DNA of 64,000 nt from Dehalococcoidia bacterium. Its GTDB lineage: Bacteria > Chloroflexota > Dehalococcoidia > GIF9 > AB-539-J10. Each line of letters starts with the position of its first letter. Positions within the stretch are counted from its first letter, which is position 1. Positions 43,876 through 64,000 of the stretch are shown here, piece by piece. The translations under genes and the position numbers were made by a program. The DNA lies in the NCBI GenBank assembly GCA_030615625.1, contig JAUWYX010000002.1, positions 82,722 through 146,721 on the forward strand, written 5' to 3'. Under the pieces are notes generated by a model, which did no database searches, was not told where the DNA came from, and worked only from the letters and a program-made list of their open reading frames with translations.

Positions 43876-44040
43876 TAACAGATTAGGTTTCCCAAAAACC
43901 TGAAGGGGTCTCTGGCTCATCAAATTGCTACTATGGGTCGTATGAGAGCCGGCACCCAGCCTGTGTCACCAGATTCACCGATTTTCTACCAGATGCGGAT
44001 GATTTTATGTAAAATTTGCCAAGCACAGACACTTAAGTGG
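43876..44040. repeat. Element 1 copy b
   Basis: GGTAACAGATTAGGTTTCCCAAAAACCTGAAGGGGTCTCTGGCTCATCAAATTGCTACTATGGGTCGTATGAGAGCCGGCACCCAGCC...; upstream of the DUF169 gene. Confidence 0.6.
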
Positions 44041-46605: not shown

Positions 46606-46680
46606 CAGGTAAGCCTTTCCCAAAAACCTGAAGGGGTCTCTGGCTCATCAGCTTGCTGGAGACAGTTTCCAAAATGGCCG
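46602..46680. repeat. Element 1 copy c (5' part only, truncated)
   Basis: CAGGTAAGCCTTTCCCAAAAACCTGAAGGGGTCTCTGGCTCATCAGCTTGCT, immediately after the stop of the AbfD-family gene. Confidence 0.55.
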
Positions 46681-46749
46681 CCGATATAAATCTTGATAAG
46701 CTGGGCGTTAGTATGTCATTCCTAGCCAACTTATAAATATTATGTCAAT

Positions 46750-46927
46750 CAGATCAGAACTGCAAATCCCCCGTGGTTTGGCTCTGCCGATGGTTTCGCA
46801 AAATCAAACTATCCTTACCGGGTCGACATCTATAGTCCAGCCCCGCGGCAAAGTGAGCCGGGATAACATCCGAGTTGAGTCAGGGCCGCGGAGGAAGAGT
46901 TGCCAGCGATACCGGCCCCTGGCCCTG
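46750..46927. repeat. Element 2 copy (degenerate duplicate of the priA 3' end plus downstream sequence)
   Basis: CAGAACTGCAAATCCCCCGTGGTTTGGCTCTGCCGATGGTTTCGCAAAATCAAAC...GGGTCGACATCTATAGTCCAGCCCCGCGGCAAAGTGAGCCGGGATAACATCCGAGTTGAGTCAGGGCCGCGGAGGAAGAGTTGCCAGCGATACC matches 58006-58200 and, from AATCAAACC onward, the native priA 3' end at 61609-61740. Confidence 0.65.
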
Positions 46928-48118: not shown

Positions 48119-48378
48119 ATATTTATACTCCTGCTTCGGGAATAACAAGCCAGGCTATTTTACCAGACATAGTTTCAGGATGTCAGACTCACCCTGACTC
48201 AGATGTGCACCACGCGATCTTAATAGGCCACAACTACATGTTTGATAAGCACAGCAGAACATGCCCTAGGTGTCTCCTGTTCTCAGGAGCTACACCACAC
48301 AATACGAATCCTGAAGGTCACTCATGGACCGAGGGCACACAGGCAGATGTTCCATACTACACCTAAAAGCTATTCGCT

Positions 48379-50067
48379 CTACTTTAGTTCCCCGCTGGCT
48401 TTCATCCTGGCTATCTCTTCTTCCCTCAATTGCCTCTTGAATAGCTTCAGGGTGACGGTGAGAGGTAGCTCTTCCCTGAACTCAATGAATTTGGGCACGG
48501 CATAAGCTGGCAGCTTCTCCCGGCAGTGACCGATTATCTCTTCGGCTGTCACTTTCCCCCGAGCCTCTTTTTTTAGCCTGATGAAAGCTTTTATCCTTTC
48601 GCTGCCCGGGCGCTCTGGGTCAGGAATCCCAATCGCCACCGCATCGCCAACCGCCGGGTGTTCATACAGAGCGTCGTCAACCAGCCTGGTGTAGACTTTG
48701 AGTCCAGATATATTGGCCATATCCTTGAGCCGGTCTGTGATGTAGAAATAGCCATCCTCTTCCATTCTTACCACATCACCGGTGGGCAGCCAGCCGTCAA
48801 CAAGCCCTTTACCCACCTCAGGCCAATAGCCAATCATTATCTGCGGTCCACGAACCCACAGCTCACCTTCTTGCCCCGGGGCCACCTCCTGACCTGTGTC
48901 CAAGTTTACAATTTTGACATCTGTATCCGGCAAGGGAATGCCTATGGAACCAAACTTTTCGAAAGGCATGAAGCCCGTGATTTTGGAGAAAGATGAAAGG
49001 TTAATGTGTGTACCACCACCGGTTTCGGTTAGCCCATAGGCTTCGGTTACGGGCACACCAGTTTCTTGCCTGAATTTCCGAGCAATCTCGGGAGCCAGCG
49101 CTGCTGTTGTGGAGAAAAACATTGTGGTAATCCTGCCAAGCCCTTGAGCTACAAGCCGTGAGTATTGAGTCGGCACGCAGGCACAGAAAAAGGGGCGATA
49201 CTTCGTCAACATCTGCGCCAGAGTGTCAATGTCTCTCGGGTCGGGAAGCAAGTAACACTTGAGCCCCCAGTAGACACCGAAATGCATAAGTAAGTGACCA
49301 TACGTATGAAAAAGAGGAATGGGGATCATGCCCGAAGCCTTGCCCTTGATTCCAACTTTTAAGGGCTCATATGCCCACGCAGTCTGTATCACTGCCGCTA
49401 TTCGATTATAATGGGTCAACATTACTCCCTTGGGTAAGCCAGTGGCGCCTCCTGTGAATGGTAGGACAGCCAGGTCTTTCATTGGATCGATGTCAACATC
49501 AGGAGGCTTGGGCTCATGGCTGTCTATTAATTCACGGAATTGATATGTGTTTGGTATTTTTTTCAACTCCGGCTCTTCCGATGAATAATCCATGACAGAG
49601 GTGACTATTATGTTCTTGATCTTGGTTCTGTCCTTTATTGAATCTACCGTCTCCAGGGACATCTCGGTGCAGATAACTGTCTCAGCTTCTGATTCACCGA
49701 TCTCGTATGTCAAGTCAGCGGCCTTGTGCATAACGCTGCATGGGACATGGGCTGCCCCGGTTTTCATAATCCCGAAGTCGCTTATCATAAACTGCGGGCA
49801 ATTTGGTAGAACGGTGGCTACTTTGTCGCCTTTCTTAACACCTAAATCAACCAGTGCCGCAGCCAACCTGTCGCTAAGAAGCTTCATCTCGCTATAAAGG
49901 ATTTCTTTCCCCAGATAGAAACAGGCAGCTCTGTCAGGAAACTCAGCCGCAGTGGCATCCAGAAGGCTGTGGGCAGTCATCTTTGGATAAGGTTCTCTTG
50001 TCTGCGGAAGCTTGTACGGCCCCATCTTATATTGCTTTAACCAGGGTTTTTCAGCCATAGCGACCAC
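48379..50067 (-). CDS. AMP-dependent synthetase/ligase (acyl-CoA synthetase)
   Basis: AMP-binding motif FTGGATGLPKGVMLTHYN and the C-terminal ANL superfamily domain. Confidence 0.8.
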   Translation of the reverse strand: MVAMAEKPWLKQYKMGPYKLPQTREPYPKMTAHSLLDATAAEFPDRAACFYLGKEILYSEMKLLSDRLAAALVDLGVKKGDKVATVLPNCPQFMISDFGIMKTGAAHVPCSVMHKAADLTYEIGESEAETVICTEMSLETVDSIKDRTKIKNIIVTSVMDYSSEEPELKKIPNTYQFRELIDSHEPKPPDVDIDPMKDLAVLPFTGGATGLPKGVMLTHYNRIAAVIQTAWAYEPLKVGIKGKASGMIPIPLFHTYGHLLMHFGVYWGLKCYLLPDPRDIDTLAQMLTKYRPFFCACVPTQYSRLVAQGLGRITTMFFSTTAALAPEIARKFRQETGVPVTEAYGLTETGGGTHINLSSFSKITGFMPFEKFGSIGIPLPDTDVKIVNLDTGQEVAPGQEGELWVRGPQIMIGYWPEVGKGLVDGWLPTGDVVRMEEDGYFYITDRLKDMANISGLKVYTRLVDDALYEHPAVGDAVAIGIPDPERPGSERIKAFIRLKKEARGKVTAEEIIGHCREKLPAYAVPKFIEFREELPLTVTLKLFKRQLREEEIARMKASGELK

Positions 50068-50078
50068 GATATCACCCC

Positions 50079-51935
50079 CTATACCTTATCGATTACATAA
50101 TCCAGATTCAGATCCTTGAGCTTTTCCGGCGTTGGCTTTCCGGTCTTTTTGTCCCAGCCGCGGAACTCATAATAGGCATCCAGCGACTGGTCTAATTTTT
50201 TCACCATATGTCCCTGGGCAGCACCCTCAGGTAATGGCTCCTCAAGCAATCGCTTCGGCAGAGTATCATCTGCCCTGGTCAGGCCGTCCCTGACGCTGAA
50301 AGCTCTCGCCAGGTTATAGACCCTCTCCCCGGCTTTTCTGAAATCGTTGACACTAAACTCCCAGCCAACGCAGTTGGCTATCATGTCAACCCAGTCTTCG
50401 GCAGCCAGTGCCATGCCCATGAACTTGCATGTCCCCACGCAATCGAAGACGGTGAGGGCATCTTCGAGGTCTTTGACCACCTTAGCCTCGGCAGGATTTT
50501 CCACAATCCAGTCTTCGATTCGGCTATCTTCAACACACAGGAAAGGAATATCTACGAAGGCTGGCCCTTCAACGTAAGCTGTAATATGGTCGCCGCCGCG
50601 GTTAGCCGTGGCAAATGCCAGACCGCATATCTTGGCTGCCCTAGGGTCATAAGCCGGCAACTCCAGCCCTTTGACGTGCATGGCAAACCTTTCCGCGCCC
50701 TTGTCCAGCTTCGCCGCTACTCTCTTAGTCCCTTCAGCCAGCAGGTCACCAATACCTTCCCTTTTGGCTATCTTGTGTATGAGCTGAATGACAACATCTG
50801 GCTCACCGAATTTCATCTCCAGCCCGTCGGTATCAGCTTTGGTCAATATCCCTTTTTCATAGCACTCTATGGCAAAGGCTATAGTGCTCCCGGTAGAGAC
50901 TACATCCAGCCCGTAGTCATCGCACAAGTTATGTGCCAGTGTCACTGCCTCAAGGTTCTCCAGCGCGCACATGGCACCAAAGGCGCCGATTGTTTCATAT
51001 TCCGGCCCTTCACCCTTACAGGCATAAGGACCGCTCTTCACCACACTTACCCTGCAGCAGCTAATGGGACAGGCGTAGCAATGCTTCCTGTCCACCAAGA
51101 GCGTGCTTTCCAGCGTGATTCCACTTATTTTGTCTATATCCGGCACAACGCCGGTCTGCCAGTTCCTGGTAGGAAACCCTCCCCTGACGTTTACCAAATC
51201 GGTAACCATGGCCGTCCCGTAGGTCTCGAGAGTAATCTTCAGCAGGCTTTCATTAACCAGGTCATAGTTCCTCTTCGAGATTTGGCTGAAAGCATCTTTG
51301 TTGGCTATTTTAATCTCCTGTGTCCCTCTGGCAGCCACTGCCTTCAGACGTTTCGACCCCATTACTGTCCCAACACCACATCTCCCGGCAGGCCGGTGAA
51401 CATCATTGAAAATACCGGCATATCTGACTAAGTTCTCACCAGCTATGCCAATGCAGGCAACATTGAAGTCCTCACCCAGTTCTTCTCTAATTAGCCTGTA
51501 TGTTTCACCAACACCTTTGCCCCAGAGGTGCTTGGCGTCTCTGAGTTCGACTTTGCCGTCATCTATTACCAGGTAGACCGGCTTGGGTGATATACCTTCG
51601 AAGATAATCCCGTCGAAACCTGAGTTTTTCAGGTAGACTCCCCAGCTACCCCCCGAGTTCGCCTCTGCCCAGAAACCGGTTAGAGGCGACTTGGTAACTA
51701 CACAATATCTTCCGGCGCTTGGTGATTCTGTGCCGGTCAAGGGCCCGGTCATAAAAATAAGCTTATTGTCGGGTCCAAGTGGGTCAGTGCCTTTGGACAC
51801 TTCGTCGAAAAGGTATTTTGTTGCCAGTCCGCTCCCTCCCAGGAACATCTTGCAGTCATCCTCTTTAAGAGCCTCTTCTGATACCTTGCCGTTTGTTAAA
51901 TCAACCCTGAGTATCTGTCCCATGTAACCGAACAT
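50079..51935 (-). CDS. Tungsten-containing aldehyde:ferredoxin oxidoreductase (AOR family)
   Basis: MFGYMGQILRVDLTNGKV N-terminus, AOR_N plus pterin-binding domains, and Cys ligands for the 4Fe-4S cluster. The ATG at 51935 follows GGAGGA. Confidence 0.85.
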   Translation of the reverse strand: MFGYMGQILRVDLTNGKVSEEALKEDDCKMFLGGSGLATKYLFDEVSKGTDPLGPDNKLIFMTGPLTGTESPSAGRYCVVTKSPLTGFWAEANSGGSWGVYLKNSGFDGIIFEGISPKPVYLVIDDGKVELRDAKHLWGKGVGETYRLIREELGEDFNVACIGIAGENLVRYAGIFNDVHRPAGRCGVGTVMGSKRLKAVAARGTQEIKIANKDAFSQISKRNYDLVNESLLKITLETYGTAMVTDLVNVRGGFPTRNWQTGVVPDIDKISGITLESTLLVDRKHCYACPISCCRVSVVKSGPYACKGEGPEYETIGAFGAMCALENLEAVTLAHNLCDDYGLDVVSTGSTIAFAIECYEKGILTKADTDGLEMKFGEPDVVIQLIHKIAKREGIGDLLAEGTKRVAAKLDKGAERFAMHVKGLELPAYDPRAAKICGLAFATANRGGDHITAYVEGPAFVDIPFLCVEDSRIEDWIVENPAEAKVVKDLEDALTVFDCVGTCKFMGMALAAEDWVDMIANCVGWEFSVNDFRKAGERVYNLARAFSVRDGLTRADDTLPKRLLEEPLPEGAAQGHMVKKLDQSLDAYYEFRGWDKKTGKPTPEKLKDLNLDYVIDKV

Positions 51936-51985
51936 GTTTGCTCCTCCTTTTTTTTTGCTCGCATGTGCTCCTAAACTGGTCTTTT

Positions 51986-52249
51986 TCACTCTTCGAATTT
52001 TGTCTTGACAGCATCCATTCGCCGCACACGGTGGATTGTCTCAAACGGCGTCTGCGTCAAGTGGAGGACTCGTCTCAATACCTTCTCATCAGGTGCCTCC
52101 CACTCACAGAAGTGCTTGTTTCCAGCGAAATCGCAGTAACTACACCTCCAGGAGACGCCTTTTGGCATGTAATTGGGTGCGGCCTTAGCGCGTGCAATCA
52201 ACTCCTCCTCAGTGAACGGTGCCTTATGAACAACTATAAAACGTGGCAT
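51986..52249 (-). CDS. DUF4242-family small protein
   Basis: MPRFIVVHKAPFTEEEL...HFCEWEAPDEKVLRRVLH resembles DUF4242 (MPxFMDVH...FCLxEAPD...VH). Confidence 0.45.
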   Translation of the reverse strand: MPRFIVVHKAPFTEEELIARAKAAPNYMPKGVSWRCSYCDFAGNKHFCEWEAPDEKVLRRVLHLTQTPFETIHRVRRMDAVKTKFEE

Positions 52250-52309
52250 TTTTACCTCCTGATGGTTCCCCCGAAATTTCTTGAAGTTAGCACAGTGGCT
52301 CCAGTAAAG

Positions 52310-53476
52310 CTAAAAATCTATACTCTTTCCTTCGTATGTGTAGCCCAAGAACCTCTCGGTCTCTGCAACATTAGGTATTCTGGCAGAAACAATCAGCGAG
52401 CCATCGGCCATGATATTGTCTATTAGCTTCTCCATCGCCTTGTTGAAGCTATTCAATGAAATACCCGTTTCTTTAATGCTCAGCGGTTGATTGATATTAT
52501 GAGCCAGTCCTCGTATAGCTTGTGTTAAAATTGTTGCTGCCCTTTTCCCTTTAGGTACTTCAAGTTTGATAGCGTAAGCTATCTCTGCCCAGAGTTCTTC
52601 GCGAACTTCACCGATGAACTCGATGGTGTAGGGCAGAAACAGCCCAACCGCTCTGCCATGGGGAATATGGAATAGGGCGCCAAGGGAATGACCTGCAGCA
52701 TGGGCCATAGATGACAGCGCGTTGATGAAGCCGATACCTGCGATACAGCCTGCATTATGCATCTTTTCCCTGGCTTCCATGTCATTCCCATCCTTCACCA
52801 CTCTAGGAAGATACTGGAAAACAAGCTGTATAGCTTTGATACAGAGACCGTCGGTGAAGTCGTTCTTCCAGGTACAGGTATATCCTTCGACTGCGTGAGT
52901 TAGTGCGTCCATGCCTGTGTCTGCTGTGATTTGTGGAGGCATTGCCCGTGCCAGTTCTGGGTCTACAATAGCAATGTCTGGGACGATCTCCCGGTTAATA
53001 AGGCTCAGCTTCCTTTGGTCAGCTGTATCGGTAAGCACTACCGCAAAAGTTGCCTCGGCACCCGTGCCCGAAGTTGTGGCAACGCAAACAAGCTTGCACT
53101 TGGCACCCAGACCCAAATCCGAAATAAATGGGTTTATTTCCTCTGGCTTTATGTCTGGCCTTTCATATTGCACCCTCATCGCCTTAGCTGCGTCCATAAC
53201 CGAGCCCCCACCTACAGCAACAACCAAATCCGGTCCATACTGGTTCATCAGAGCCACACCCTTTTGTACCGTCTGCAGCGACGGGTCGGGCTCAACCTCA
53301 TCAAAGACAGTGGCTTGTATCCCCGCTTGGGAAAGCTGTTCTTTGACTTTGTCAACGAAACCCAGACTCACAATGTTCTTATCGGTAACGATGAACGCCG
53401 ATTTCCCCTTCAATTGAGCCAGGTGGCTCAGTGCATCTTGTCCAAAAACTACCTCAGGAACCACGAAGTACCACAT
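52310..53476 (-). CDS. Iron-containing alcohol dehydrogenase
   Basis: Fe-ADH family motifs (GGGSVMDAAKAM, the metal-binding His cluster HxxxH...H); 388 aa. Confidence 0.85.
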   Translation of the reverse strand: MWYFVVPEVVFGQDALSHLAQLKGKSAFIVTDKNIVSLGFVDKVKEQLSQAGIQATVFDEVEPDPSLQTVQKGVALMNQYGPDLVVAVGGGSVMDAAKAMRVQYERPDIKPEEINPFISDLGLGAKCKLVCVATTSGTGAEATFAVVLTDTADQRKLSLINREIVPDIAIVDPELARAMPPQITADTGMDALTHAVEGYTCTWKNDFTDGLCIKAIQLVFQYLPRVVKDGNDMEAREKMHNAGCIAGIGFINALSSMAHAAGHSLGALFHIPHGRAVGLFLPYTIEFIGEVREELWAEIAYAIKLEVPKGKRAATILTQAIRGLAHNINQPLSIKETGISLNSFNKAMEKLIDNIMADGSLIVSARIPNVAETERFLGYTYEGKSIDF

Positions 53477-53578
53477 AGCTACCTCCTCTTCATAAACTGG
53501 TTATATTTCTATAACAACATTATGTCAGCAAACAACAGCTATTATCAGCCTGCTTGTGGCTTCACACTATATAAATGT

Positions 53579-53989
53579 CTAATCAGGGAATACGGTCTCA
53601 AATGCAGTCATGCAGTTGACCAGTTCCACGGCTGCCCTGGGCATCTTCATGATTTGGGCCATATCACCTTTGACCTTGATCTTGCCGGTCATCATAGACT
53701 GGACTGGGTCAACCTTTTTGTCCAGTATTTGCTTCATGTTGGTGAACGAGCCGAATATGCGGTATTTCGGAGACTTCTCATTTTCGTCCGTAATCACGCG
53801 AGCCTCGCGGCATTCACCATGCCACAGGTCAAGGTACATGATGTCCCTGTGTTTGTACGATGCATCGGGCTCCACGATAATGTATATGTCTCCTTCCCAC
53901 TTCTTAGCTGCCTCTTTGTATGCCTGGCTGGTTTCCAGCGCCTTTTTCAGTGCATCCACCCACTCTTGTGATCCAAACAAAATAGCCAT
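53579..53989 (-). CDS. SCP2 sterol-carrier-like domain protein
   Basis: C-terminal MTGKIKVKGDMAQIMKM matches the SCP2 signature (GKLKxxGNMxLAMKL). Confidence 0.55.
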   Translation of the reverse strand: MAILFGSQEWVDALKKALETSQAYKEAAKKWEGDIYIIVEPDASYKHRDIMYLDLWHGECREARVITDENEKSPKYRIFGSFTNMKQILDKKVDPVQSMMTGKIKVKGDMAQIMKMPRAAVELVNCMTAFETVFPD

Positions 53990-54126
53990 TTTAACCTCCT
54001 CCTGATGAATTTCGGCTGTAAATTATACCATTTTTTACCCACTCAAGACGTGTTACATAGACACTACCACCCCCTCCCTGAAAATCGATCACTTATATCC
54101 AGCAGTCAGTGACGACGCAGACTACG

Positions 54127-54531
54127 CTATTTCAGTACCATTATCTTTGAAATCTTGAGCAATAGCAAAGGATTGCCCCCAGACTTCAGCTTGCCGGTGA
54201 GCATAGCCACTATAGGGCTGAGTTGGCCAGAGCTAATATGTGCTAGATTTTCAAACCCAGCTTCCATATATGCCGTCGGCTTGGCTACGGCATCATTCTG
54301 CAGCTCAAGTTTGCCTTGATCGAGATGTAGTGTAACGGCTACACCTGACGTCGACTCCTTGATGACTACACTTCCTTTCACCTTCTCAACGCTCTTATAC
54401 TTCTTAGGGTCCTTGAGGTTTGTGTCCATAATCTCCTTGAGCATTACACCCAGACCGTTAAGTTCTTTCCCCTCCTTCACCTTGACTTCAGTCACCTTCA
54501 ATATACCTCCCTTCAAGGATGTCTCCTGCAA
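54127..54531 (-). CDS. SCP2-like domain protein (second copy, divergent)
   Basis: C-terminal LTGKLKSGGNPLLLLKI. Same size class as the neighbouring gene. Confidence 0.4.
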   Translation of the reverse strand: MQETSLKGGILKVTEVKVKEGKELNGLGVMLKEIMDTNLKDPKKYKSVEKVKGSVVIKESTSGVAVTLHLDQGKLELQNDAVAKPTAYMEAGFENLAHISSGQLSPIVAMLTGKLKSGGNPLLLLKISKIMVLK

Positions 54532-54603
54532 AATTTCTTCACCGATTTATCCCTTCATGGTATATTATATTATAATTATCATGACTATTGTAAGGGTATT
54601 TTT

Positions 54604-55479
54604 ATGGAAAGCAACACAGCCGACAAAGATATTATCCGATATATTGCCGGATCAGCAGAGGCATATTTTGCCCCGGACGGGAAAAGACTCCCCGTTATCA
54701 GCCTGAAAACAGCGGCGTCCATCGCCAATTCGCAAGGAATCTCGACCAAAGAGGTGGAAATAACGGCGTTAAAGCAGGGAATTGTCCCCCGGCGATATCT
54801 CCGAAATATAGGCACAATAGGTCTGGTTGGGCAAATTAAACTATTGCAATCAACCGTGGCCGTGGTAGGTGCGGGGGGGTTAGGTGGCACTGTTATCGAG
54901 TTATTGGCCAGACAAGGAGTAGGCCATCTGATTATCATAGATAATGACTGCTTCACTGAGCGGGATTTGAACAGGCAAATTATGTCCACAGAAGAAAATC
55001 TGGGCGAATACAAAGTTACCGTGGCAGCAAAAAGAGCCGGGGAGATAAATTCAGCAACCACAGTCACTACATTTCGGGAAAGGTTGACCAAGGAGAATGC
55101 TCAAAAGCTTCTTGGCAGTGCTCAGGTAGTAGCCGATGGACTTGATAATCTGCCATCACGGTTGGCGGTTGAGCAGGCTTGTCGTCAACTGGCAATACCC
55201 TATGTCTATGCGTCGATAGCCGGCTTTGGTGGTCAACTCATGACTATTTTTCCTGAAGACACGGGGCTGTCTTCAGTTTATGGGTCATCCAATACTATTC
55301 CCGGACAGGGTATAGAGACTAAAATCGGTAACCCTACAGCCACACCTGCAATCATTGCCGCATTACAGGTTCAGGAGGTAGTCAAAATCATCACTGGAGT
55401 CGGTAAACCTGCACGTAACCAGATCCTCTTGGTGGATGCCAGGGAATGTATTATCGACAAAATTGAACTGGGAAGGTAG
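54604..55479 (+). CDS. ThiF/MoeB/HesA-family E1-like adenylyltransferase with an extra N-terminal segment
   Basis: Rossmann-type nucleotide-binding motif VAVVGAGGLGG plus the ThiF core. The ~75-aa N-terminal extension is of unknown function. Confidence 0.65.
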   Translation: MESNTADKDIIRYIAGSAEAYFAPDGKRLPVISLKTAASIANSQGISTKEVEITALKQGIVPRRYLRNIGTIGLVGQIKLLQSTVAVVGAGGLGGTVIELLARQGVGHLIIIDNDCFTERDLNRQIMSTEENLGEYKVTVAAKRAGEINSATTVTTFRERLTKENAQKLLGSAQVVADGLDNLPSRLAVEQACRQLAIPYVYASIAGFGGQLMTIFPEDTGLSSVYGSSNTIPGQGIETKIGNPTATPAIIAALQVQEVVKIITGVGKPARNQILLVDARECIIDKIELGR

Positions 55480-55483
55480 GGAA

Positions 55484-55768
55484 ATGGCATTAGTTACAGT
55501 GCGCTTCTATAGTCTCTGGCGTTCTTATCTCGACACAGATAGCACCACTTTGCAAGCTGATCACATAGATGACGCACTAACTCAGCTCGAAGAGAAATTT
55601 GGTTCTCGCCTCCGAGAGAAACTCGAGGCTGCTGGGATTCATCTGGATGGGAAGATACAGGACTATTCGCTCATTTTGCTGAACGGTATCGCCTTGCGCA
55701 ATCTGAAGAGCACTGCCCTAAAAGAAGGAGATGTGCTACACATCTTTCCACCCGCCATCGGTGGGTAA
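55484..55768 (+). CDS. MoaD/ThiS-family sulfur-carrier protein (C-terminal Gly-Gly)
   Basis: 94 aa beta-grasp-sized protein ending ...HIFPPAIGG*. It lies directly downstream of the ThiF-like gene. Confidence 0.6.
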   Translation: MALVTVRFYSLWRSYLDTDSTTLQADHIDDALTQLEEKFGSRLREKLEAAGIHLDGKIQDYSLILLNGIALRNLKSTALKEGDVLHIFPPAIGG

Positions 55769-55899
55769 CAGCCGAAGAATATCTGATTGTACCTTGTACC
55801 CTTCCGAGTAATTTGGCATACGCCCTCTTTCCTCACAGAGAAAGTTTGCTTTGTCAATCTCCTGATTTGTGTAGTTGCCTGATTTATCAGGCTTTGCCC

Positions 55900-56135
55900 T
55901 TCAACAAGCCAGGCAAGATACCCGTCGAGGCAGCCAGGCGGTAACAGGTAAGTCTTTCCCAAAAACCTGAAGGGTTTTCTGGCTTATCAGCTTGCTATTA
56001 TGGGTTGGTATGAGAGCTAGTGCCCAGCCTCTATCACTCAATTTATGGACTTTTTTACCGAATGGTGATGAAACTTTGAAAAAATCTTGGAAAATCAGAA
56101 AAACTATTGACAATTCCTTCATTAGTGATATAATA
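55900..56135. repeat. Element 1 copy d, including a 3' remnant of the AbfD-family gene and the promoter module
   Basis: 55906-55945 (CAAGATACCCGTCGAGGCAGCCAGGCGGTAACAGGTAAG) duplicates the last ~12 codons plus stop of 45073..46605 (...SKIPAEAARR*). Then comes GTAAGTCTTTCCCAAAAACCTGAAGGG..., followed by TTGACAATTCCTTCATTAGTGATATAATAGG (TTGACA-N17-TGnTATAAT). Confidence 0.65.
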
Positions 56136-56409
56136 GGCTCCATAAGAATAGTCTTAAAAAAATAGTATTTAAGACTAATATCAAGGTGGGTGGTCAAGTG
56201 TGTGCGTCAGGGGTTTGTTATAGTTCCTACGATGCTCCTAAGAGCACATACAGCTATGTGAACGAGGCTCTTTTTCCCTGCCATGGCAAAATCAATCCTC
56301 CCTTTCGAAACCTAAAATCATTGCCAGGCATAGCCGAGGCAATCCCTTCTCTCTTGAGTCGAAGGATAAGGATTTTGGAAAAACCGAACTGTTACTAAGG
56401 AGTTGAAGT

Positions 56410-57993
56410 ATGAAGATAATACTTAGCTCGAGGAGACGCCACTACGTGAAAAGACTTGGCATCTTTTTGATTACGGTAGCCTTAATTGTGGGAATAGCAG
56501 GCTGTGAGGGTAGTTGTAGTTCTACTCCTGTTCAATACGATCTCACCACCTCCAGTACTGCAGGCGGCGACGTAGTTATCTCCGGTGAGGGAACTTATGC
56601 CGATGGAGCAATAGTCACCATGGAGGCCGTGGCGGATGAGTGTTACGAGTTCGTCAACTGGACCGGCGCAGACGTCGCCGACCCCTACTCTCCCATAACC
56701 ACCATCACTATGGATGAAGCTAAGAGTATAACCGCCAATTTTGCCCTGCTGAGCTACGACCTTACAGCAGACAGCACAGATGGTGGCGAGGTAACCACTC
56801 CTGGCGAGGGGACTTTTACCTATGACTGCGGCACGGTGGTTGACCTGGTGGCGACTCCAGATGCTTACTACGGGTTTGTCGAGTGGACCGGCGATGTGGA
56901 CACCATCGCCGATGTTTATGCTGCCTCAACCGCCATCACCATGAACGGCGACTATTCTATCACCGCTAACTTCATCCTGTTCGCCGGAGGGAACGGAACA
57001 GCCGAGAATCCCTATCAGATTGCGGATTGGTACCACCTTGATAATGTCCGCAATTATCTAAGCAGCTACTTTATCGTCATAAACGACCTCGATTCCAACT
57101 CTATTGGCTATACAGAGCTGGCGAGTGAGACAAGCCACGAAGGAAAAGGCTGGGAGCCAATTGGAAGTATTGCTGTAAATGACGCATTCGTCGGCAGCTT
57201 CGACGGTCAGGGGTACGAGATATGCGACCTGTTTATCGACCGCCCTGACGAATCTGATGTGGGGCTCTTCGGTGTTGTTGAAGAATTAGGGGTCATCGAG
57301 AATGTCGGCGTAGTAGTAAACGGCAATGTGACTGGCCAAGACGATGTTGGCGTTCTGGTGGGAAAGAATGAGGGCACTGTAAGCAACTCCTGTTCCACCG
57401 GCAATGTGACTGGCAACCTCAATGTTGGCGGTCTGGTGGGATGGAATTTTAAGGGCACTGTCACCGACACCTATTCCACCGGCAATGTAACTGGCCTAGA
57501 CAATGTTGGCGGTCTGGTGGGATGGAATACGGGCACTATGAGCAACTCCTATTCCACGGGCGGCGTGACTGGCAATACGAGTGTTGGCGGTCTGACCGGA
57601 AAGAATGGCGGCACTGCGAGCAACTCCTATGCCACCGGCAGCGTGACTGGTGATGATAATGTCGGTGGTCTGGTGGGAAAGAATGACAACACTGGCACTG
57701 TTAGCAACTCCTATTCCACTGGCAGTGTGACTGGCAATACGCATGTTGGCGGTCTGATGGGAAGGAATCAGGGCACTGAGAGCAACTCCTTCTGGGACAC
57801 CGAGACCAGCGGACAAGCTACTTCAGATGGAGGGGACGGCAAGACCACCGCGGAAATGCAGGACATCACCACCTTCTCAGGAGCAGGCTGGGACATAATC
57901 ACAGTCGCCAATCCTGGCACGCGCAACCCTTCCTACATCTGGAATATCGTTAACACTGTGACTTATCCATTCCTGAGCTGGCAGCCTGTTTAA
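56410..57993 (+). CDS. Lipoprotein with two InlB-B-type repeats and tandem GLUG-motif repeats
   Basis: Lipobox LIVGIAGC. Two ~80-aa repeats (FVNWTGADV...ITANF and FVEWTGDV...ITANF). It also has at least six GLUG-type repeats (VGGLVGxNxGTxSNSYSTGxVTG). Confidence 0.65.
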   Translation: MKIILSSRRRHYVKRLGIFLITVALIVGIAGCEGSCSSTPVQYDLTTSSTAGGDVVISGEGTYADGAIVTMEAVADECYEFVNWTGADVADPYSPITTITMDEAKSITANFALLSYDLTADSTDGGEVTTPGEGTFTYDCGTVVDLVATPDAYYGFVEWTGDVDTIADVYAASTAITMNGDYSITANFILFAGGNGTAENPYQIADWYHLDNVRNYLSSYFIVINDLDSNSIGYTELASETSHEGKGWEPIGSIAVNDAFVGSFDGQGYEICDLFIDRPDESDVGLFGVVEELGVIENVGVVVNGNVTGQDDVGVLVGKNEGTVSNSCSTGNVTGNLNVGGLVGWNFKGTVTDTYSTGNVTGLDNVGGLVGWNTGTMSNSYSTGGVTGNTSVGGLTGKNGGTASNSYATGSVTGDDNVGGLVGKNDNTGTVSNSYSTGSVTGNTHVGGLMGRNQGTESNSFWDTETSGQATSDGGDGKTTAEMQDITTFSGAGWDIITVANPGTRNPSYIWNIVNTVTYPFLSWQPV

Positions 57994-58005
57994 TACAACT
58001 AGCAC

Positions 58006-58342
58006 TCAGACCAGAACTGCAAATTCCCCGTGGTTGGGCTCTGCCGATGGTTTCGCAAAATCAAACCATACCCACCGGGTCGACATCTATAGTCCAGCCC
58101 CGCGGCAAAGTGAGCCGGGATAACATCCGAGTTGGGCTAGGACCACGGAGGAAGAGTTGCCAGCGATACCTGCCCCTGGCTCTGAAGGCAAAAGTAGGCA
58201 CAGGACCAATTACATTGAAATCAATCATGTCCTTTCTTGCCTTTTCATCAAGAATTAGACGATACACCCTCTCTGCCTCACGGCGACATAACTCTTCATT
58301 GGTGTGGCTATAAACCAGGCGGACTAACTGGCTAAAAGGGGG
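58006..58342 (-). pseudogene. Element 2 copy: duplicated 3' fragment of priA (last ~94 codons) plus downstream sequence
   Basis: The reverse strand encodes PPFSQLVRLVYSHTNEELCRREAERVYRLILDEKARKDMIDFNVIGPVPTFAFRARGRYRWQLFLRGPSPTRMLSRLTLPRGWTIDVDPVGMV*. This is ~90% identical to the native PriA C-terminus at 61611-61892. The ORF 58061..58267 is part of it. Confidence 0.7.
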
Positions 58343-58378
58343 GGAGCAGCTCGTAATGATGGAAGGGGAGCATAAACA

Positions 58379-58408
58379 GAGAGCCGAGGCTCAAAAGCCT
58401 CGGCTCTC
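58379..58408. repeat. Palindromic hairpin element (13-bp perfect stem GAGAGCCGAGGCT / AGCCTCGGCTCTC, loop CAAA)
   Basis: Second copy of the GAGCCGAGGCT palindrome seen at 43690-43714. It sits between element 2 and the acylase stop. Confidence 0.5.
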
Positions 58409-58484
58409 CATACCAGCCCTGGCTAGCAGTCGGAATGGGCTACACCCACCAGACTTTCGAATCCTGTGGCCGTAGCTTTAATTT

Positions 58485-61001
58485 CTAGAACACCCTCCTC
58501 CATGTTTCCACTGCCTCGATATCCTTACTGCGGAATAACATGTGCTTGTATTGCCAGGCTGCGTACAGCGGCAATTGGTCGAACGCATAAGGGCTGGGAC
58601 CTAGAAAACTCACAAACCCGCTCTGTCCGGGCGGAATCACACTTACCGCATGTGGTGGTGGTCCCTTCGCTCCTGCACCTGGTTTTGCATGTGACGGTGG
58701 CTTTGAGGGCATTTCGGCGATGTGATTGTAGGTGCCGCGGTTCATATAGGGATGGCTGGCCGGGTCCCCTGGTAGAGCTCCCTGCTCGTCATAAGTCTGC
58801 ATGCTCACCGGGGTAAGCCAGGTGGACATATCTTCGCCATATGCGAGCTTCAGGTCATCAATAGCATCTTTCAGCGCGCCGACAATCAGTGCATCCAGTG
58901 CGGCGTCAGAGGGATACCCAGGGTAGTTGAGGGAGCCATCGTCCCTGAAGACGCGGAGTAAGAGGCTGGGCCTACCCTTTATCTGCCCGATTATGTCGGG
59001 TGAAAGGATACCGGCAAACACTGCGGGAACGATTCTGTCATACCAGGAGTTAAAGATGGTCAGACCAGCATGGTCGTACGTGGGATTGGGGTCAGTAGGC
59101 CATTTGGGTGACACAAGGTCGACATAGCTAACAGGAAGAGGTGTTGCGGTAGCCCAGGCTAAGAGGTACCCTAGTGCTCCCTCGACCTCTGGGTCAGTGG
59201 TTGTTCCCAAGTAGGCTGTGACCACGGCTATCAGATCCGCGACGAAGTTCATTCCGTTGATATTGTTGTATCCCGCAATCTGGTTAATCATGTTCATGTC
59301 GTCGAATGTCACGTCTCCCCTTGGAGCGTAATAATCAGCTAGAACATTCATCAGAATCTGTACACGGTGACCCTCGCCCCAGCCAAAATCTGATTCTGCA
59401 TAGGGCCAGTCGGCGATTGGCTTGTTGTTCCAGTTGGTAAGCCAGCCCTGCTCGGGGTTGATGACCCTGGGCATCTCTTCAGGGCCTGTGACACGAACCC
59501 ACTCTTGTGTTCCGTCACCCATCAAGGGCAACCTGCGATCAGCATCTACCGGCTTTACCGGGAAGCGCCCAGCATGCCAGTAGCCTATGTTCCCTTCCCT
59601 GTCAGCCCAGCAGAAGTTGTGGGAAGGCCATATCAGTTCCACTGCCGCCTCAAATTCCTCAATGTTCGTTGCCTCCTGGAAGAGCTGCCAACCTTGCTCG
59701 GCACCAATCTCATTCCTGTAGAAGGGGGTATGCAGGGTAATAGCCGTGCCCGCAGCTATGCCGACGATAGGACCATAGTGCGAGCGATAAAAGGTCTCCG
59801 TCACCGGTCCCGGTAGCCCCTGAACCTGGAATGTCTCTGTTCTAACTTCCATGTCACGCCAGTTACCTTCGTACAAATACTGTAATGGGTTCTCAGGATT
59901 CAGCACCAGGATGCGTATGTCTATGACATCGGAAGAACCGGTGGTTGACGTCCAGGCGCCATGTTCGCTGACACCAATCAAAATGAATGGACCGGATCCG
60001 GGGAATGCCATACCCTGGGCACTGATTCCCGCGCCATGCAACCCTATCTCGTAAACGATTTGCGGAATCGTATGCCCCATCTGCGGTCCTCCCAGTTCAA
60101 GTGCGTTCCCAGTTGCCGACAATTCCGGACTGATAAGCACGGCGTTGCTTCCAAATTTTGTCGGCATACCCAGCGACTCAAGCGTTTCATCCTGAGCTGC
60201 CCGCGACTCCTCATACTGCTCAAGGAGTCCGCTGACGCCATCGGGGAAGTCGAACGAAGGCATACTCAAGAAAGTCGCTCCATAAGCCTCGTCGGCTATG
60301 GTCACAGGTGCTCCAGGGTCATTCAGTGGGAAGAGCTCGTTCCAGATGAGCCCTCCACTCGCTGGGCCATGCATTCCCTGAAGCGTAAGTAGAGCTTCGT
60401 AGAAAGCGCCCTCGTTGCCGCCTGTTCCGCCAAATTGCCAGGCCATCAGCACTGTAACGGCTACCACATCTGCGACGCTAAAGGGCTCAAGTTTATCAAC
60501 TAGCTCCATCCCGATATATTCAACAGGTATAAGGGATAGGTCGCCCTGAGCTGCTGCAGCTAAGGCCTCGGAAATGTAAAGATTTATGCCGTCTACGTAA
60601 GCCTCAATCATCGGCTTGAGATGTTCGTAGCCTTCGCCCGGGTCCCACTCCTCATAAATTTGCAGTAACTCGTCCTGGTTATACCACAACGCTCTCATTT
60701 CCATATCCTGCGGGAGGACGCTTGGGCCTAGTAATTCAGCAAGACGTCCGGAAGCCATTCTCCTGAAGACGTCGGCCTGCCAGAGTCTGTCTTGAGCCAT
60801 GGCATAGCCAGTTCCAAAGCCCAAACCCTCTTTCGTATCCGAGAAAACATGGGGAACTCCATAATCGTCTCTTATGATCCGGAGGTAGCGCCAAGGATGC
60901 CCATCAGCCGTACCGGCGGCCACGCCAGGTAATGGAAAGGTGCTGATTACGAGCACAACGATCAATAGGACTGCTAATATCGATATCTTGGCTTTAGACA
61001 T
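58485..61001 (-). CDS. Secreted penicillin amidase (peptidase S45, Ntn-hydrolase) family protein
   Basis: Signal peptide. YLRIIRDDYGVPHVFSDTKEGLGFGTGYAMAQDRLWQADVFRRMASGRLAELLG matches the S45 N-terminal signature (RDxxGVPHI...GYxxAQDRLxQM...RRxAxGxLSE); 838 aa. Confidence 0.8.
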   Translation of the reverse strand: MSKAKISILAVLLIVVLVISTFPLPGVAAGTADGHPWRYLRIIRDDYGVPHVFSDTKEGLGFGTGYAMAQDRLWQADVFRRMASGRLAELLGPSVLPQDMEMRALWYNQDELLQIYEEWDPGEGYEHLKPMIEAYVDGINLYISEALAAAAQGDLSLIPVEYIGMELVDKLEPFSVADVVAVTVLMAWQFGGTGGNEGAFYEALLTLQGMHGPASGGLIWNELFPLNDPGAPVTIADEAYGATFLSMPSFDFPDGVSGLLEQYEESRAAQDETLESLGMPTKFGSNAVLISPELSATGNALELGGPQMGHTIPQIVYEIGLHGAGISAQGMAFPGSGPFILIGVSEHGAWTSTTGSSDVIDIRILVLNPENPLQYLYEGNWRDMEVRTETFQVQGLPGPVTETFYRSHYGPIVGIAAGTAITLHTPFYRNEIGAEQGWQLFQEATNIEEFEAAVELIWPSHNFCWADREGNIGYWHAGRFPVKPVDADRRLPLMGDGTQEWVRVTGPEEMPRVINPEQGWLTNWNNKPIADWPYAESDFGWGEGHRVQILMNVLADYYAPRGDVTFDDMNMINQIAGYNNINGMNFVADLIAVVTAYLGTTTDPEVEGALGYLLAWATATPLPVSYVDLVSPKWPTDPNPTYDHAGLTIFNSWYDRIVPAVFAGILSPDIIGQIKGRPSLLLRVFRDDGSLNYPGYPSDAALDALIVGALKDAIDDLKLAYGEDMSTWLTPVSMQTYDEQGALPGDPASHPYMNRGTYNHIAEMPSKPPSHAKPGAGAKGPPPHAVSVIPPGQSGFVSFLGPSPYAFDQLPLYAAWQYKHMLFRSKDIEAVETWRRVF

Positions 61002-61610
61002 TTTCCATCACTCTCCTTTCCTTTTGTAATAGTTCGCCCTGAAACGTAGTTTAGCCTCTCTGAAATCTCAGTCCATAGTACATCACCCCCTCGCTGTCAA
61101 GCCTCCATCACCAGTCATCACCCCAACCAGCACAGGCACGAGCGTAATCCCAAAGATTCTGGCTGTCACCTGCCTTCTTCCCATTGTCGTACATCCCTTG
61201 CTCATTGTTTTACATTTATCCTCCTCCCTCGACAGAGCTTCAGCGTGAGCTCAGTCGCACGCCCCGGACAGGTTCTTATCCTTCTTCCCTCAAGCGGAAG
61301 GGGATTGCTTGGGCTATGCCTGGCATGGCCTGGGATTTCGAATGGGAGGATAGATTTTGCCGTGGCTGGGAAAAAAGAGCCGAGACTACATGTCTATATG
61401 CGCTCAACTGAATCTGATGAGGACTAAAGTAACCCCTGACACACACTCTTGACCCCCACTTTTGTATTATTTTATAGTACCACCATCAACAGAAATTTGT
61501 CAACAGGTCTTAACCATGTGGATAAGTAGAAAGCAGCCATATACTCGGCAATAAGAAGAACAAAATGGGAAAGCCCAATATTGATTATCCCCTGAGAAAT
61601 GTCTGTAGAA

Positions 61611-64000
61611 TCAAACCATCCCTACGGGGTCGACATCTATAGTCCAGCCCCGCGGCAAAGTGAACCGGGATAACATCCGGGTTGAGTCAGGGCCACGGAG
61701 GAAGAGTTGCCAGCGATACCTGCCCCTGGCCCTGAAGGCAAAAGCGGGCACAGGACCAATTACATTGAAATCAATCATGTCCTCTCTTGCCCTTTCATCA
61801 AGAATTAGACGATGCACCCTCTCTGCCTCACAGCGACATAGCTCCTCATTGGTGTGGCTATAAACCAGGCGGACTAACTGGCTAAAAGGGGGATAATTGT
61901 ATCGGCGGCGATAATCTATTTCTTTATAATAAAAACCAAGATAATCATGCCTGGCAGCAGCTTCAATAATGTAGTTATCGGGGGAGTAAGTCTGGATGAT
62001 GACCTTCCCCGCTTTAACCCCACGCCCCGCCCTGCCAGCTACCTGACACAGGAGTTGAAAAGTGCGCTCGCTACTTCGGAAATCAGGAAAATTAAGGCCG
62101 GTATCGGCACTGATTATCCCGGCCAGGGTCACTTGAGGCAGATCTAATCCTTTGGCTATCATCTGGGTGCCAATAAGCACATCTGCCTTGTGGTCACGAA
62201 AATTCTTTAACAACTCCTCATGAGCATATCTCCTGGTAATCACATCTCTGTCCCAGCGAAGCAATCTTGCTTCAGGGAAGAAATGCCTTATCTCTTCTTC
62301 TACCCTCTGCGTGCCAATGCCCAGAAACCTCAGATAACGCCGAGAACACCGGGGGCAGCTTTGGGGTGCTGGAACAGAATAACGACAGCGATGGCAAATT
62401 AGCCTTTTCTCCGCTGAATGGTAAGTAAGGGCTATGGAGCAGCGGGGGCAGCGAAAGACAAAGCCACAGTTACGACATCGAACAAAGGTAGCTGTGCCCC
62501 GACGGTTAAGGAAAAGAATTATCTGCTCGCCCTGCGCCAAAGTTTCTTTCATGGCAGCTAACAAGGAACGGCTAAACAAGCTTGTGTTTCCGGCTTTAAG
62601 TTCTTCCCTCAAATCCACTATGCTTACTTCGGGGAGAGGGGAATAACCACGAGGAGTAATTCTTTCCTTTAGCTCTACAAGATAATATTCGCCTTGCTGT
62701 GCCTTATGGAAACTGCCAATATCAGGGGTAGCACTGCCCAGGATGACAACAGCATCGCTGAGTTGAGCCAATTCAATGGCCACGTCGCGGGCATGATAGC
62801 GAGGTGACTTATCTTCTTGTTTGTATGTCCATTCATGCTCTTCATCGATAATGATAAGACCGAGGTTGGCCAGGGGCGCAAATAATGCGCTCCTCGGTCC
62901 GATGACGACGTCGCAGTTTCCCTCCACTATCCATTGCCACTCGTCGAACTGTTCTCCCAAGGAAAGGCCACTATGCAGTACTGCCACACGCCCGGGGAAG
63001 CGATCAGCAAATCTCTCTACTGTTTGTTGGGTCAAAGCGATTTCAGGGATAAGACAAATGCCTCGCTTACCGGCGGCAATAACCTGAGCTAATGCCCGCA
63101 GGTAAATCTCAGTCTTTCCGCTGCCAGTAACGCCAAAAAGGAGAAAAACCGGTGGACTGCTAGATTGCCTTGCTTCCTTCACAATGACATCTTGGATCGA
63201 TTCCCAAGCAGTTTGTTGAGATGAGGTGAGAATCGGAGCTGGAGAAGTTGTGAGGCTGAGGTGAGATAAGGGGTCACGTCTTACCCTGAGCCTTTCCACT
63301 GAGACCAAATGGCGGCTCTCCAGGGCTTTGATAGTGGCAAGAGAGCTATTGAGACGTTTCCTCAGTTCGCTAATTGAAATAGGTTGAGTCTGCCCGGTCA
63401 GAAATTCTAATAGTTCTGCCTGTTTATAAGCTCTAGACTTATCCAGGCGAGCTTTCTCCGCTTCAATTTCTTCTCTGTCAGCTATTAACTTAATATAAGG
63501 AAGCGTTTTGGGCTTTATCTTTGCCTTTTCCAATTCCAGAGTTTTTGCAATTAGCTGACGGTCTAGCAACTGGTCGGTAATTTGCTTGGCTTTTCTTTTG
63601 CCAATTGCTTTCTCCAGCTCAGCCAAGCTTGTCTTCCCCTCCCTTCTCATAATGTGCAGGATTTGCCTTTGCTCGGGTGTCAGGGGCAAATCTACTTGGG
63701 AATCTGTTAGCTGAAAGCAAGTAATAGCCCGTCTCTCAAATCCCGGAGGCAGCATTAAAGCCAGGGCATCGAAAAGGGGGGCAAAATAGTGTTCGCTTAT
63801 CCACTGGGCAAGCTTTATTTGTATCGGGGAAAGCAAAGGAAAATCAGTAACAATGCCAGCTATTTCCTTAGTTTCTTCAACCGATGGCTCGTCTGATAAT
63901 CGGAGCACAATCCCCTGAATAACCCTGGAGCCAAAGGGCACCCATACTGCTTGCCCGGCACTAATATTGAGCCCTGGCGGTATGGCATAGCAAAAAGTTG
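61611..64000 (-). CDS. priA: Primosomal protein N' (PriA helicase); N-terminus extends beyond the window end
   Basis: VPFGSRVIQGIV N-terminal motif, Walker A GVTGSGKTE, DEAH-like DEEHE, and Cys4 zinc-binding CRNCGFVFRCPRCS...CHRCRY. The frame remains open upstream of 63941 (...AIPPGLNISAGQAVWVPFGSR) to the window edge. Its 3' ~285 bp form the native copy of element 2. Confidence 0.9.
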   Translation of the reverse strand, partial: TFCYAIPPGLNISAGQAVWVPFGSRVIQGIVLRLSDEPSVEETKEIAGIVTDFPLLSPIQIKLAQWISEHYFAPLFDALALMLPPGFERRAITCFQLTDSQVDLPLTPEQRQILHIMRREGKTSLAELEKAIGKRKAKQITDQLLDRQLIAKTLELEKAKIKPKTLPYIKLIADREEIEAEKARLDKSRAYKQAELLEFLTGQTQPISISELRKRLNSSLATIKALESRHLVSVERLRVRRDPLSHLSLTTSPAPILTSSQQTAWESIQDVIVKEARQSSSPPVFLLFGVTGSGKTEIYLRALAQVIAAGKRGICLIPEIALTQQTVERFADRFPGRVAVLHSGLSLGEQFDEWQWIVEGNCDVVIGPRSALFAPLANLGLIIIDEEHEWTYKQEDKSPRYHARDVAIELAQLSDAVVILGSATPDIGSFHKAQQGEYYLVELKERITPRGYSPLPEVSIVDLREELKAGNTSLFSRSLLAAMKETLAQGEQIILFLNRRGTATFVRCRNCGFVFRCPRCSIALTYHSAEKRLICHRCRYSVPAPQSCPRCSRRYLRFLGIGTQRVEEEIRHFFPEARLLRWDRDVITRRYAHEELLKNFRDHKADVLIGTQMIAKGLDLPQVTLAGIISADTGLNFPDFRSSERTFQLLCQVAGRAGRGVKAGKVIIQTYSPDNYIIEAAARHDYLGFYYKEIDYRRRYNYPPFSQLVRLVYSHTNEELCRCEAERVHRLILDERAREDMIDFNVIGPVPAFAFRARGRYRWQLFLRGPDSTRMLSRFTLPRGWTIDVDPVGMV

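Follow-up and report, generated by a model that had tools for sequence, protein, structure and literature searches.

A leftover 3′ end of priA beside an acylase gene suggests a recombination scar between rival versions of a variable spot in uncultured Dehalococcoidia

The priA 3′ repeats and the acylase unit

The stretch of DNA analyzed here, called the window, spans 64 kb of a metagenomic assembly (GenBank GCA_030615625.1, contig JAUWYX010000002.1, positions 82,722 to 146,721) whose source organism has been placed in an uncultured Dehalococcoidia lineage, and toward its right end a gene for an 838-residue acylase lies between two direct copies of the 3′ end of priA, which encodes primosomal protein N′. 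The structure is real and is not a self-mobile single-gene cassette; comparison with related contigs suggests that the leftover priA copy is a recombination scar between rival versions of a variable spot.

priA itself (61611-64000, minus strand; Pfam PriA_3primeBD, DEAD, Zn_ribbon_PriA and PriA_C) is truncated by the right end of the window, with 776 residues visible compared with 810-818 in relatives. The repeat pairs 58059-58342 with 61609-61892, is 284 nt long, ungapped and 93.7% identical (blastn E 6e-123), begins 2 nt past the priA stop codon and spans the last 94 codons, with both copies in frame. Copy A (61609-61892, minus strand) is the live priA 3′ end, comprising the 94 codons, the stop and 2 nt, and in repeat-free relatives the corresponding sequence runs on unbroken into the remainder of priA on one side and the downstream leader on the other. 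Copy B (58059-58342, minus strand) is a displaced 284-nt relic of the priA 3′ end that reads in frame, lacks its own start codon and holds no open reading frame (ORF) longer than 68 aa.

The only credible gene between these inner repeats is the acylase ORF (58485-61001, minus strand), and no further plausible ORF was found in the unit between A and B, the others being at most 75 aa long and overlapping the leader or the relic. About 80 nt past the acylase stop lies a terminator-like palindrome, GAGAGCCGAGGCT/AGCCTCGGCTCTC (58380-58407, minus strand), with a 14-bp stem and a 4-nt loop, whose centroid structure has a free energy of -28 kcal/mol (z-score -3.6) and which is conserved 3′ of the acylase in the relatives examined. 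The original prediction, made from the letters of the window, had described a single-gene unit between priA 3′ repeats with a palindromic hairpin after the stop codon, and both features are borne out; a 3344-nt Logan contig (SRR14872670) matches window positions 58313-61656 at 100% and spans both borders, which shows that the description was correct.

A third copy makes the repeat arrangement nested. Copy C, a 126-nt priA 3′ relic (46802-46927, minus strand; 94.4% identical), sits 11 kb from the inner pair and, together with the segment that follows it, spans 46746-46927. This following segment, X, comprises 56 nt past the stop codon that B and C have in common (58003-58058 beside B, minus strand, and 46746-46801 beside C).

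The priA-side border is native sequence

The comparison set consists of about 100 related Dehalococcoidia contigs (labeled L001-L099), all of which are metagenome assemblies. Loci carrying the acylase version are termed acylase-type or Q-type, and the others are GLUG-type, with a gene for a GLUG/InlB-repeat surface protein, or HpaB-type. Against L054-L057, the window gives one high-scoring segment pair (HSP) of 5697 nt (82.9% identity) from 63998 to 58350, running through the priA stop, a segment of about 100 nt called Y, the leader, the acylase and the hairpin, and L011, L027, L036, L039 and L052 are likewise collinear with the priA-acylase block. Y (61512-61608, minus strand) is the native priA-downstream sequence of acylase-type loci and is collinear with L095 (HSP of about 95%, from 64000 to 61512), L011, L052, L054 and L012. 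X holds the same place in GLUG-type and HpaB-type loci, where it is the native priA-downstream sequence, lying directly 3′ of full-length priA in L035, L037, L048, L009, L013, L070 and L099; in L070 priA is followed by X and then the GLUG gene, and in L099 by X.

At least 11 related contigs carry the acylase immediately 3′ of priA in the same orientation and have no priA repeat farther downstream, and many other relatives have no acylase. Conservation of the acylase at this position in all relatives without repeats, the finding that the original prediction had set against its own reading, is therefore present in part: the 11 or more contigs fit it and the many acylase-free relatives do not. 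On the far side of the unit, ThiS directly follows the hairpin in L054-L057 (within about 60 nt), L039, L074, L081, L090, L092, L093 and L095-L098.

Since the border at 61608/61609 is continuous in repeat-free relatives, it is native sequence and no attL. The acylase unit (61608-58343), consisting of Y, promoter, leader, gene and terminator, is ordinary chromosomal DNA and is priA's native downstream neighbor in many Dehalococcoidia of the group. The sole novel joint of the unit is J4 (58342/58343), where 7 nt (58343-58349), the last of the acylase-type spacer (CTGCTCC), abut priA position -284; homology to Q-type relatives ends at 58350, and the microhomology at the joint is at most 2 nt, within a C run. 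Two further joints of the window have similar characteristics, namely J2 (46927/46928) at priA -126, with the microhomology CAGG, and J3 (55906/55907), with GGCT, such that microhomology over J2-J4 ranges from 0 to 4 nt. J4 is also present in L058 and L060-L062, which come from other studies and are 91-92% identical to the window overall, as well as in the Logan contig L001, and the 51 nt of the joint are identical in L001 and L060-L062. This recurrence across studies with diverged flanks indicates that the arrangement is real and vertically inherited. Altogether, no fewer than six further assemblies, diverged from the window by about 8%, inherit the joint.

The ORFs scanned between 2.8 and 64 kb of the window include no gene for an integrase, transposase, resolvase or other recombinase, and there is no integron integrase (intI) among them. 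There are no attC-like palindromes at the repeats, which are in-frame priA coding sequence and in this respect differ from integron cassettes. Within the window, A and B agree fully over their first 47 nt, and this does not amount to a conserved identical core, as the L059/L060 strain has mismatches at positions 3, 39, 40 and 45. A tRNA or tmRNA gene as integration target was considered and rejected, the sole tRNA gene of the window being a tRNA-Pro far off at 29718-29790. A discrete mobile cassette with directly readable attL and attR, as originally proposed, is not supported, given the collinearity of the priA-side border with L054, the lack of a recombinase gene among the scanned ORFs and the missing core.

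Relics recur and are homogenized with the live gene

A second priA 3′ copy within 10 kb was found in only one of the 44 relatives with a complete priA 3′ end, L012, whose relic comprises 104 nt and shares joint J2 with the window. In the same contig (12332-12747), Y and the acylase-downstream spacer are kept and the acylase itself is lost. In L064-L069, X and a 49-nt priA 3′ relic lie between two GLUG paralogues (for example L064, 8123-8219), followed by the shared promoter and leader described below and then by the second GLUG gene, X and priA; this relic is an independent displacement scar in another lineage. In L058, where the relic is more decayed (31-36 differences, with indels), it lies inside a called 112-aa ORF with a PriA_C match (3899-4237); both this ORF and the 68-aa relic ORF of the window are putative.

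Copies A and B of the window differ at 18 positions, of which nine are synonymous and nine non-synonymous, giving a pN/pS of 0.31 that equals the value for orthologous priA ends and is no sign that B was recently the live gene. L094 is 99.5% identical to the window and yet has eight differences within the 284 nt of A, seven of them with the B state; in L059/L060, the corresponding copies A′ and B′ are identical over their last 125 nt; and copies within a genome are no more distant than orthologous copies between genomes. Together, these patterns demonstrate gene conversion between the live gene and its relic. An allele phylogeny of the 284-nt copies, by which resident and donor copies might be told apart, gave a star-like tree with homogenized copies and is therefore uninformative.

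A and B can also recombine with each other, deleting the unit between them. L063, from the same strain and sample as the cassette-bearing contig L061, lacks the unit and carries the A′ allele. It was considered as an ancestral empty site and rejected, its priA end being the A′ allele of that same strain (0 mismatches in 284 nt); L063 represents either a deletion by recombination between the repeats or a collapse by the assembler.

The priA-recR interval exists in alternative versions

The locus belongs to a conserved frame in which dnaX-recR (36440-39077, plus strand) is convergent with priA on the minus strand. The gap between priA and recR measures 0-11 nt in L004, L021 and L047 and 22.5 kb in the window, where it is filled by five modules: a beta-helix pair encoding two surface proteins, DUF169 with an HpaB-like gene, an aldehyde:ferredoxin oxidoreductase (AOR) operon, the GLUG/InlB-repeat protein and the acylase. 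These modules recur in many combinations among relatives, and the priA-recR interval is a recombination hot spot that exists in several alternative versions.

Adjoining relic B and X, the GLUG gene (56410-57993, plus strand, within the region 56107-57993) is preceded by a perfect sigma-70-like promoter (56107-56134) and the shared leader, and it is the native priA neighbor in L070 and L064-L069. Next to it, an HpaB relic, the last 38 nt of the gene (55907-55944), and a copy of a spacer repeat, R4, together occupy 55907-56071 (plus strand), with J3 at their edge; J3 is also found in L099 and L063. The AOR module (47006-55768) encodes an FrhB-like protein, an AMP-ligase, the aldehyde:ferredoxin oxidoreductase, an Fe-alcohol dehydrogenase (Fe-ADH), two SCP2 proteins, ThiF and ThiS, and follows directly after the acylase in Q-type relatives, while copy C with its X sits behind the far end of the operon. 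Spacer R, a sequence found downstream of recR, occurs four times in the interval with 72-93% identity (39121-39237, 43874-44002, 46601-46657 and 55940-56071) and marks module borders as the priA relics do.

Among the close relatives, L099, the nearest one that shares J3 (priA 96.2%, AOR module 95.1% identical to the window), has this joint followed by the HpaB 3′ end, R, X and priA, and lacks the GLUG gene, relic B, J4 and the acylase, which demonstrates that J3 exists without J4. The sister group, L095-L098 (priA 96.0%), is of pure acylase type without J3 and loses its similarity to the window at 61512, a short way upstream of the promoter-like site at 61503-61474. In the same position (12859-15312), these contigs have another, strongly diverged allele of the acylase, which shares only 78% nucleotide identity with that of the window, so that two acylase allele types segregate at the locus. 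Between the window and L054, identity is 87.1% for the acylase, 82.6% for priA and 81.3% for thiSF, which indicates that the history of the acylase differs from that of its flanks.

Origin of the arrangement

We consider it somewhat probable that the locus was shaped by repeated recombination anchored by homology in priA and closed each time by an illegitimate joint, the acylase having been lost and later regained. Conserved at the boundary of the locus, priA is the gene proposed to supply the homologous anchor. Acylase-version DNA of a relative would pair with the resident chromosome via homology in priA, and the opposite end of this DNA, some 30 nt beyond the terminator of the acylase, would be joined illegitimately to resident priA at position -284. 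Such a process would correspond to homology-facilitated illegitimate recombination; if the same fragment first circularized and then underwent Campbell-type integration, an identical product would result. The incoming DNA would bring the intact priA 3′ end (A), and the resident old 3′ end (B) would be displaced downstream along with X and the GLUG gene.

The comparison of versions suggests four steps, each of which would require one homologous exchange in priA and one illegitimate joint. First, an acylase/AOR-type segment would have entered an HpaB-type locus with its joint at priA -126, leaving relic C. Second, the acylase would have given way to an HpaB-type segment joined within the ThiS spacer (J3), which corresponds to the state of L099; because this version would have replaced an earlier acylase at J3, the gene would have been lost and then regained. 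Third, the GLUG gene would have been gained between R and X, and fourth, an acylase-type segment would have been regained with its joint at priA -284 (J4), leaving relic B. Of the originally predicted acquisition, what stands is that the unit was probably re-acquired at the priA 3′ end, as suggested by L099, which has no acylase, and by the 78% allele of L095-L098; what does not stand is its arrival as a mobile cassette.

We infer the recombination mechanism, the order of events and the direction of transfer from these sequence comparisons. The varied lengths and genes of the relics, the tiny microhomologies and the missing recombinase argue for illegitimate joints beside homologous anchors and not for a site-specific system. 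A displacement scar is expected to have a collinear anchor side, an abrupt joint with little microhomology and recurrent relics with differing break points, and the locus shows all three.

Several points weigh against this proposal. No donor genome has been identified, and since copy A resembles a same-clade allele of at least 94%, transfer, if any, would have come from a close relative. DNA uptake in these uncultured bacteria is presumed, the support for the mechanism is comparative sequence evidence, the comparison sequences are exclusively metagenome assemblies, of which L063 at least may be a collapsed repeat, and the recombinase scan was confined to the 64-kb window within the larger genome. 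The signal of the resident copy has been lost because gene conversion erased it. Besides, measured frequencies of homology-facilitated illegitimate recombination are low (PMC5361080). Sliding identity along priA was also tried as a means of locating the crossover point and gave no clear break.

Alternative explanations

The events can also be read with the opposite polarity, which we rate below priA-anchored displacement and regard as unlikely. A 2.44-kb GLUG-type piece (55907-58342), consisting of priA from -284, its stop, X, the GLUG gene, the leader, R4 and the last 38 nt of HpaB, would have been inserted into a resident acylase-ThiS spacer by two illegitimate joints, removing about 150-220 nt of that spacer, such that the repeats would exist only via the priA end on the inserted piece and the acylase would never have been mobile. 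This accounts for the fact that the piece is flanked on both sides by acylase-type sequence in the right order and orientation, on one side the terminator region as far as 58350 and on the other the 46 nt nearest to ThiS (55865-55910), which match L012 and the L011 spacer; it derives J3 and J4 from one event and agrees with the short microhomologies at both joints. However, to derive from the window type the state of L099, with J3 but without J4, the GLUG gene, relic B or the acylase, two more precise deletions would be needed, the acylase and its flanks differ in their histories, and insertion without a homologous anchor is mechanistically rarer (PMC5361080).

We hold it to be quite improbable that the priA 3′ end is a standing capture site that works without a recombinase, with circles being looped out between copies and re-inserted at any priA 3′ end. 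If true, the locus would be an integron-like stacking array running on RecA alone, its units would pass between cells, and gene conversion with an essential gene would keep the capture sites recombination-competent.

A further reading takes up the integration hypothesis of the original prediction and regards the unit as an integrase-less cassette moved by site-specific recombination, like a cis-mobilizable element, with the priA 3′ copies as attL and attR, a recombinase encoded elsewhere and accretion in tandem at priA. This we consider very unlikely. The nested, tandem-like arrangement of three direct copies of the priA 3′ end, the identical first 47 nt of A and B, the occurrence of the cassette-less L063 in the same sample as L061 and the shortness of many acylase contigs, which end in repeats, are all features that such a cassette would explain. 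Nevertheless, the priA-side border is no junction, no second copy exists in relatives whose priA is followed by the acylase, the scanned ORFs of the window encode no recombinase and the 47-nt identity fails in the L059/L060 strain. Relic lengths vary (49, 104-126 and 284 nt) and there are similar relics of HpaB and of spacer R, the A′ allele of L063 is what a homologous deletion between A′ and B′ or an assembler collapse would leave, and a search of viral contigs turned up no close relative of the acylase.

An assembly artefact, in which co-occurring GLUG-type and acylase-type strains were stitched into a chimeric contig, is hardly credible, for although assemblers do break or mis-join here (L006 and L016 stop within the priA 3′ end, and the unit is skipped in L063), J4 was recovered independently in the Logan contig, L058 and L060-L062, from different studies and with diverged flanks, and its partners share at most 2 nt, so that a k-mer graph would not create the joint.

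The acylase

The predicted protein matches PF01804 over the full length of the profile (residues 41-830 against positions 3-675 of 675; E 5.1e-127, 426 bits), in agreement with its original assignment to the penicillin-amidase family. Its best solved relatives are the beta chains of the penicillin G acylases (PGAs) 8brr and 6nvw from Priestia megaterium (E 7e-75). A check for the autoproteolytic site, suggested in the original prediction, gave a candidate in Ser285 (FG|SNAVLI), which is aligned to residue 1 (SNAMII) of the mature beta chains 8brr_B and 6nvw_B. Additionally, GGPQ (GPQ), NWNN and the Arg of GHRVQ are aligned to the corresponding PGA motifs, the active-site and oxyanion residues behind them being presumably beta Gln23, Asn241 and Arg263 in Escherichia coli PGA numbering. 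The predicted alpha chain extends from about 40 to 238, where it matches alpha chains, and the predicted beta chain starts at Ser285. These alignments place the acylase as a bona fide S45 N-terminal nucleophile (Ntn) hydrolase of the penicillin G acylase branch. Its N-terminus, MSKAKISILAVLLIVVLVISTFPLPGVAAG, resembles a Sec signal peptide on inspection, in line with the signal peptide noted originally, and the protein looks secreted, with putative export and autoproteolytic maturation.

Compared with the PGAs (PDB 6nvw, 8brr and 1gk9), the enzyme shares the S45 fold family, the division into alpha and beta chains, the Ser nucleophile opening the beta chain and the aligned motifs. It differs in being distant (256 bits for the beta chain of the best solved structure), in that much of its C-terminal half aligns poorly, and in coming from anaerobic Dehalococcoidia, where it adjoins an aldehyde:ferredoxin oxidoreductase operon. 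For the PvdQ-type equivalog NF051460 it scores 83.5 bits, below the cut-off of 950, PvdQ chains match at E 1e-18 compared with 7e-75 for PGA, and cephalosporin acylases, like PvdQ-type N-acyl-homoserine lactone (AHL) acylases, give far weaker matches than PGA. By these scores the penicillin G acylases are its nearer relatives by a wide margin over AHL acylases of the PvdQ type; the quorum-quenching or antibiotic-modifying role suggested originally is a putative one. A literature search combining Dehalococcoidia with penicillin acylase returned no papers, and one for SRR14872670 gave none either.

The proposed check covered GC content and codon usage. The gene has 53.9% GC, where the window has 48.8%, and its codon usage is moderately unusual, at a distance of 0.149 compared with about 0.07 for long core genes; composition was nonetheless rejected as a sign of foreign origin, being weak evidence, since other secreted-protein genes of the window, one of them outside the variable interval, share these traits, which therefore say little on origin.

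In L011 (12769-15333), the acylase is split into several ORFs, which may reflect a pseudogene or long-read sequencing errors. The acylase repeatedly neighbors ThiS/ThiF, two SCP2, Fe-ADH, AOR, AMP-ligase and FrhB-like genes (L055, 3489-15996; window, 47006-61001). Speculatively, this AOR-operon neighborhood hints that the acylase frees organic acids for an acid-reducing or acid-activating pathway, and the adjoining AOR, acyl-CoA ligase and alcohol dehydrogenase genes offer a lead on its substrate, for example aromatic or fatty acids released from N-acyl compounds.

Regulatory sequences and other features of the window

Both the acylase and the GLUG gene are preceded by a sigma-70-like promoter, behind which comes a leader roughly 200 nt long. 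For the acylase, the promoter-like site (61503-61474) and the long 5′ leader lie within 61002-61511 on the minus strand. The two leaders (61275-61469, minus strand, acylase; 56176-56370, plus strand, GLUG) are 74% identical, and the same leader precedes GLUG genes in L064-L070 and a beta-helix gene in L002. Between the window and L059-L062 the leader is 97.7% identical, compared with 91.4% for the acylase coding sequence. The shared leader had no hit in Rfam at E values up to 10, and it was rejected as a structured RNA, its consensus fold reaching no more than -2.9 kcal/mol and containing one compensatory pair; it may serve as an operator or as a regulatory leader without structure.

The GAGCCGAGGC palindrome of the acylase also occurs 3′ of the second beta-helix gene (43691-43713) and appears to be a shared terminator motif. 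A weak match to the c-di-GMP-II riboswitch (39381-39462, plus strand; 32 bits against a gathering score of 53.5, E 0.002) lies 120 nt upstream of the first beta-helix surface protein gene. Outside the variable interval, an internal 299-nt part of the aspartate-semialdehyde dehydrogenase gene recurs with 91% identity about 100 nt past that gene's stop (28052-28350 and 29065-29363), which constitutes a further gene-fragment relic. The window also encodes a family X DNA polymerase with a PHP domain (7932-9731, plus strand); such polymerases take part in gap filling during end joining.

Known systems and significance

The leftover priA copy belongs to a known kind of scar, found here in an unusual gene and organism. 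[quoted passage not shown] It proposes homologous exchange at an anchor combined with an illegitimate joint for T6SS effector-immunity arrays, and a similar hypothesis exists for Rhs (PMC5361080). As in those arrays, a conserved upstream gene would serve as homologous anchor at priA, new DNA would come to lie beside it, the old 3′ part would be shifted downstream, and repeated events would build an array of relics with no integrase involved. Unlike in those arrays, where the anchor is a toxin gene and variable toxin tips are displaced, the anchor at priA is an essential replication gene and what is displaced is conserved coding sequence for the PriA C-terminus. Metabolic and surface-protein modules make up the cargo, and gene conversion maintains the similarity of the relics to the live gene.

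Homology-facilitated illegitimate recombination is said to have been described in natural transformation of Acinetobacter, Streptococcus pneumoniae and Pseudomonas stutzeri, reportedly by de Vries and Wackernagel in 2002, Prudhomme et al. in 2002 and Meier and Wackernagel in 2003. The likeness to the priA locus would lie in one end being homologous and the other joined at a microhomology of a few bases, with foreign DNA added beside the anchor. Laboratory events of this kind usually delete recipient DNA. At priA, by contrast with those laboratory events, the joint falls inside the anchor gene, so that a duplicated relic remains, and the mechanism is one we infer from its products.

Tandem islands and cis-mobilizable elements (CIME) at gene 3′ ends are familiar from the ssrA islands of Dehalococcoides and from ICESt/CIME at fda. 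These systems are similar to the window in that direct repeats of a gene's 3′ end bound units arranged in tandem. The window differs in having no integrase or conserved core, in that only one of the two borders is a junction, in its varying relic lengths and in that the "cargo" is priA's native neighbor in relatives.

In this sense, the locus illustrates how a recombination scar is easily mistaken for the ends of a mobile element, one border here being simply native. It also reveals a hypervariable priA-recR interval (0 to 22.5 kb) in an uncultured, environmentally widespread Dehalococcoidia group, in which secreted-enzyme, surface-protein and aldehyde-oxidoreductase modules are swapped among relatives, each swap leaving datable relics of an essential gene, and such relic arrays let the order of gene gain and loss be rebuilt from metagenomes. 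The findings suggest that homology-anchored illegitimate recombination, and not dedicated mobile elements, drives accessory-gene turnover at this locus.

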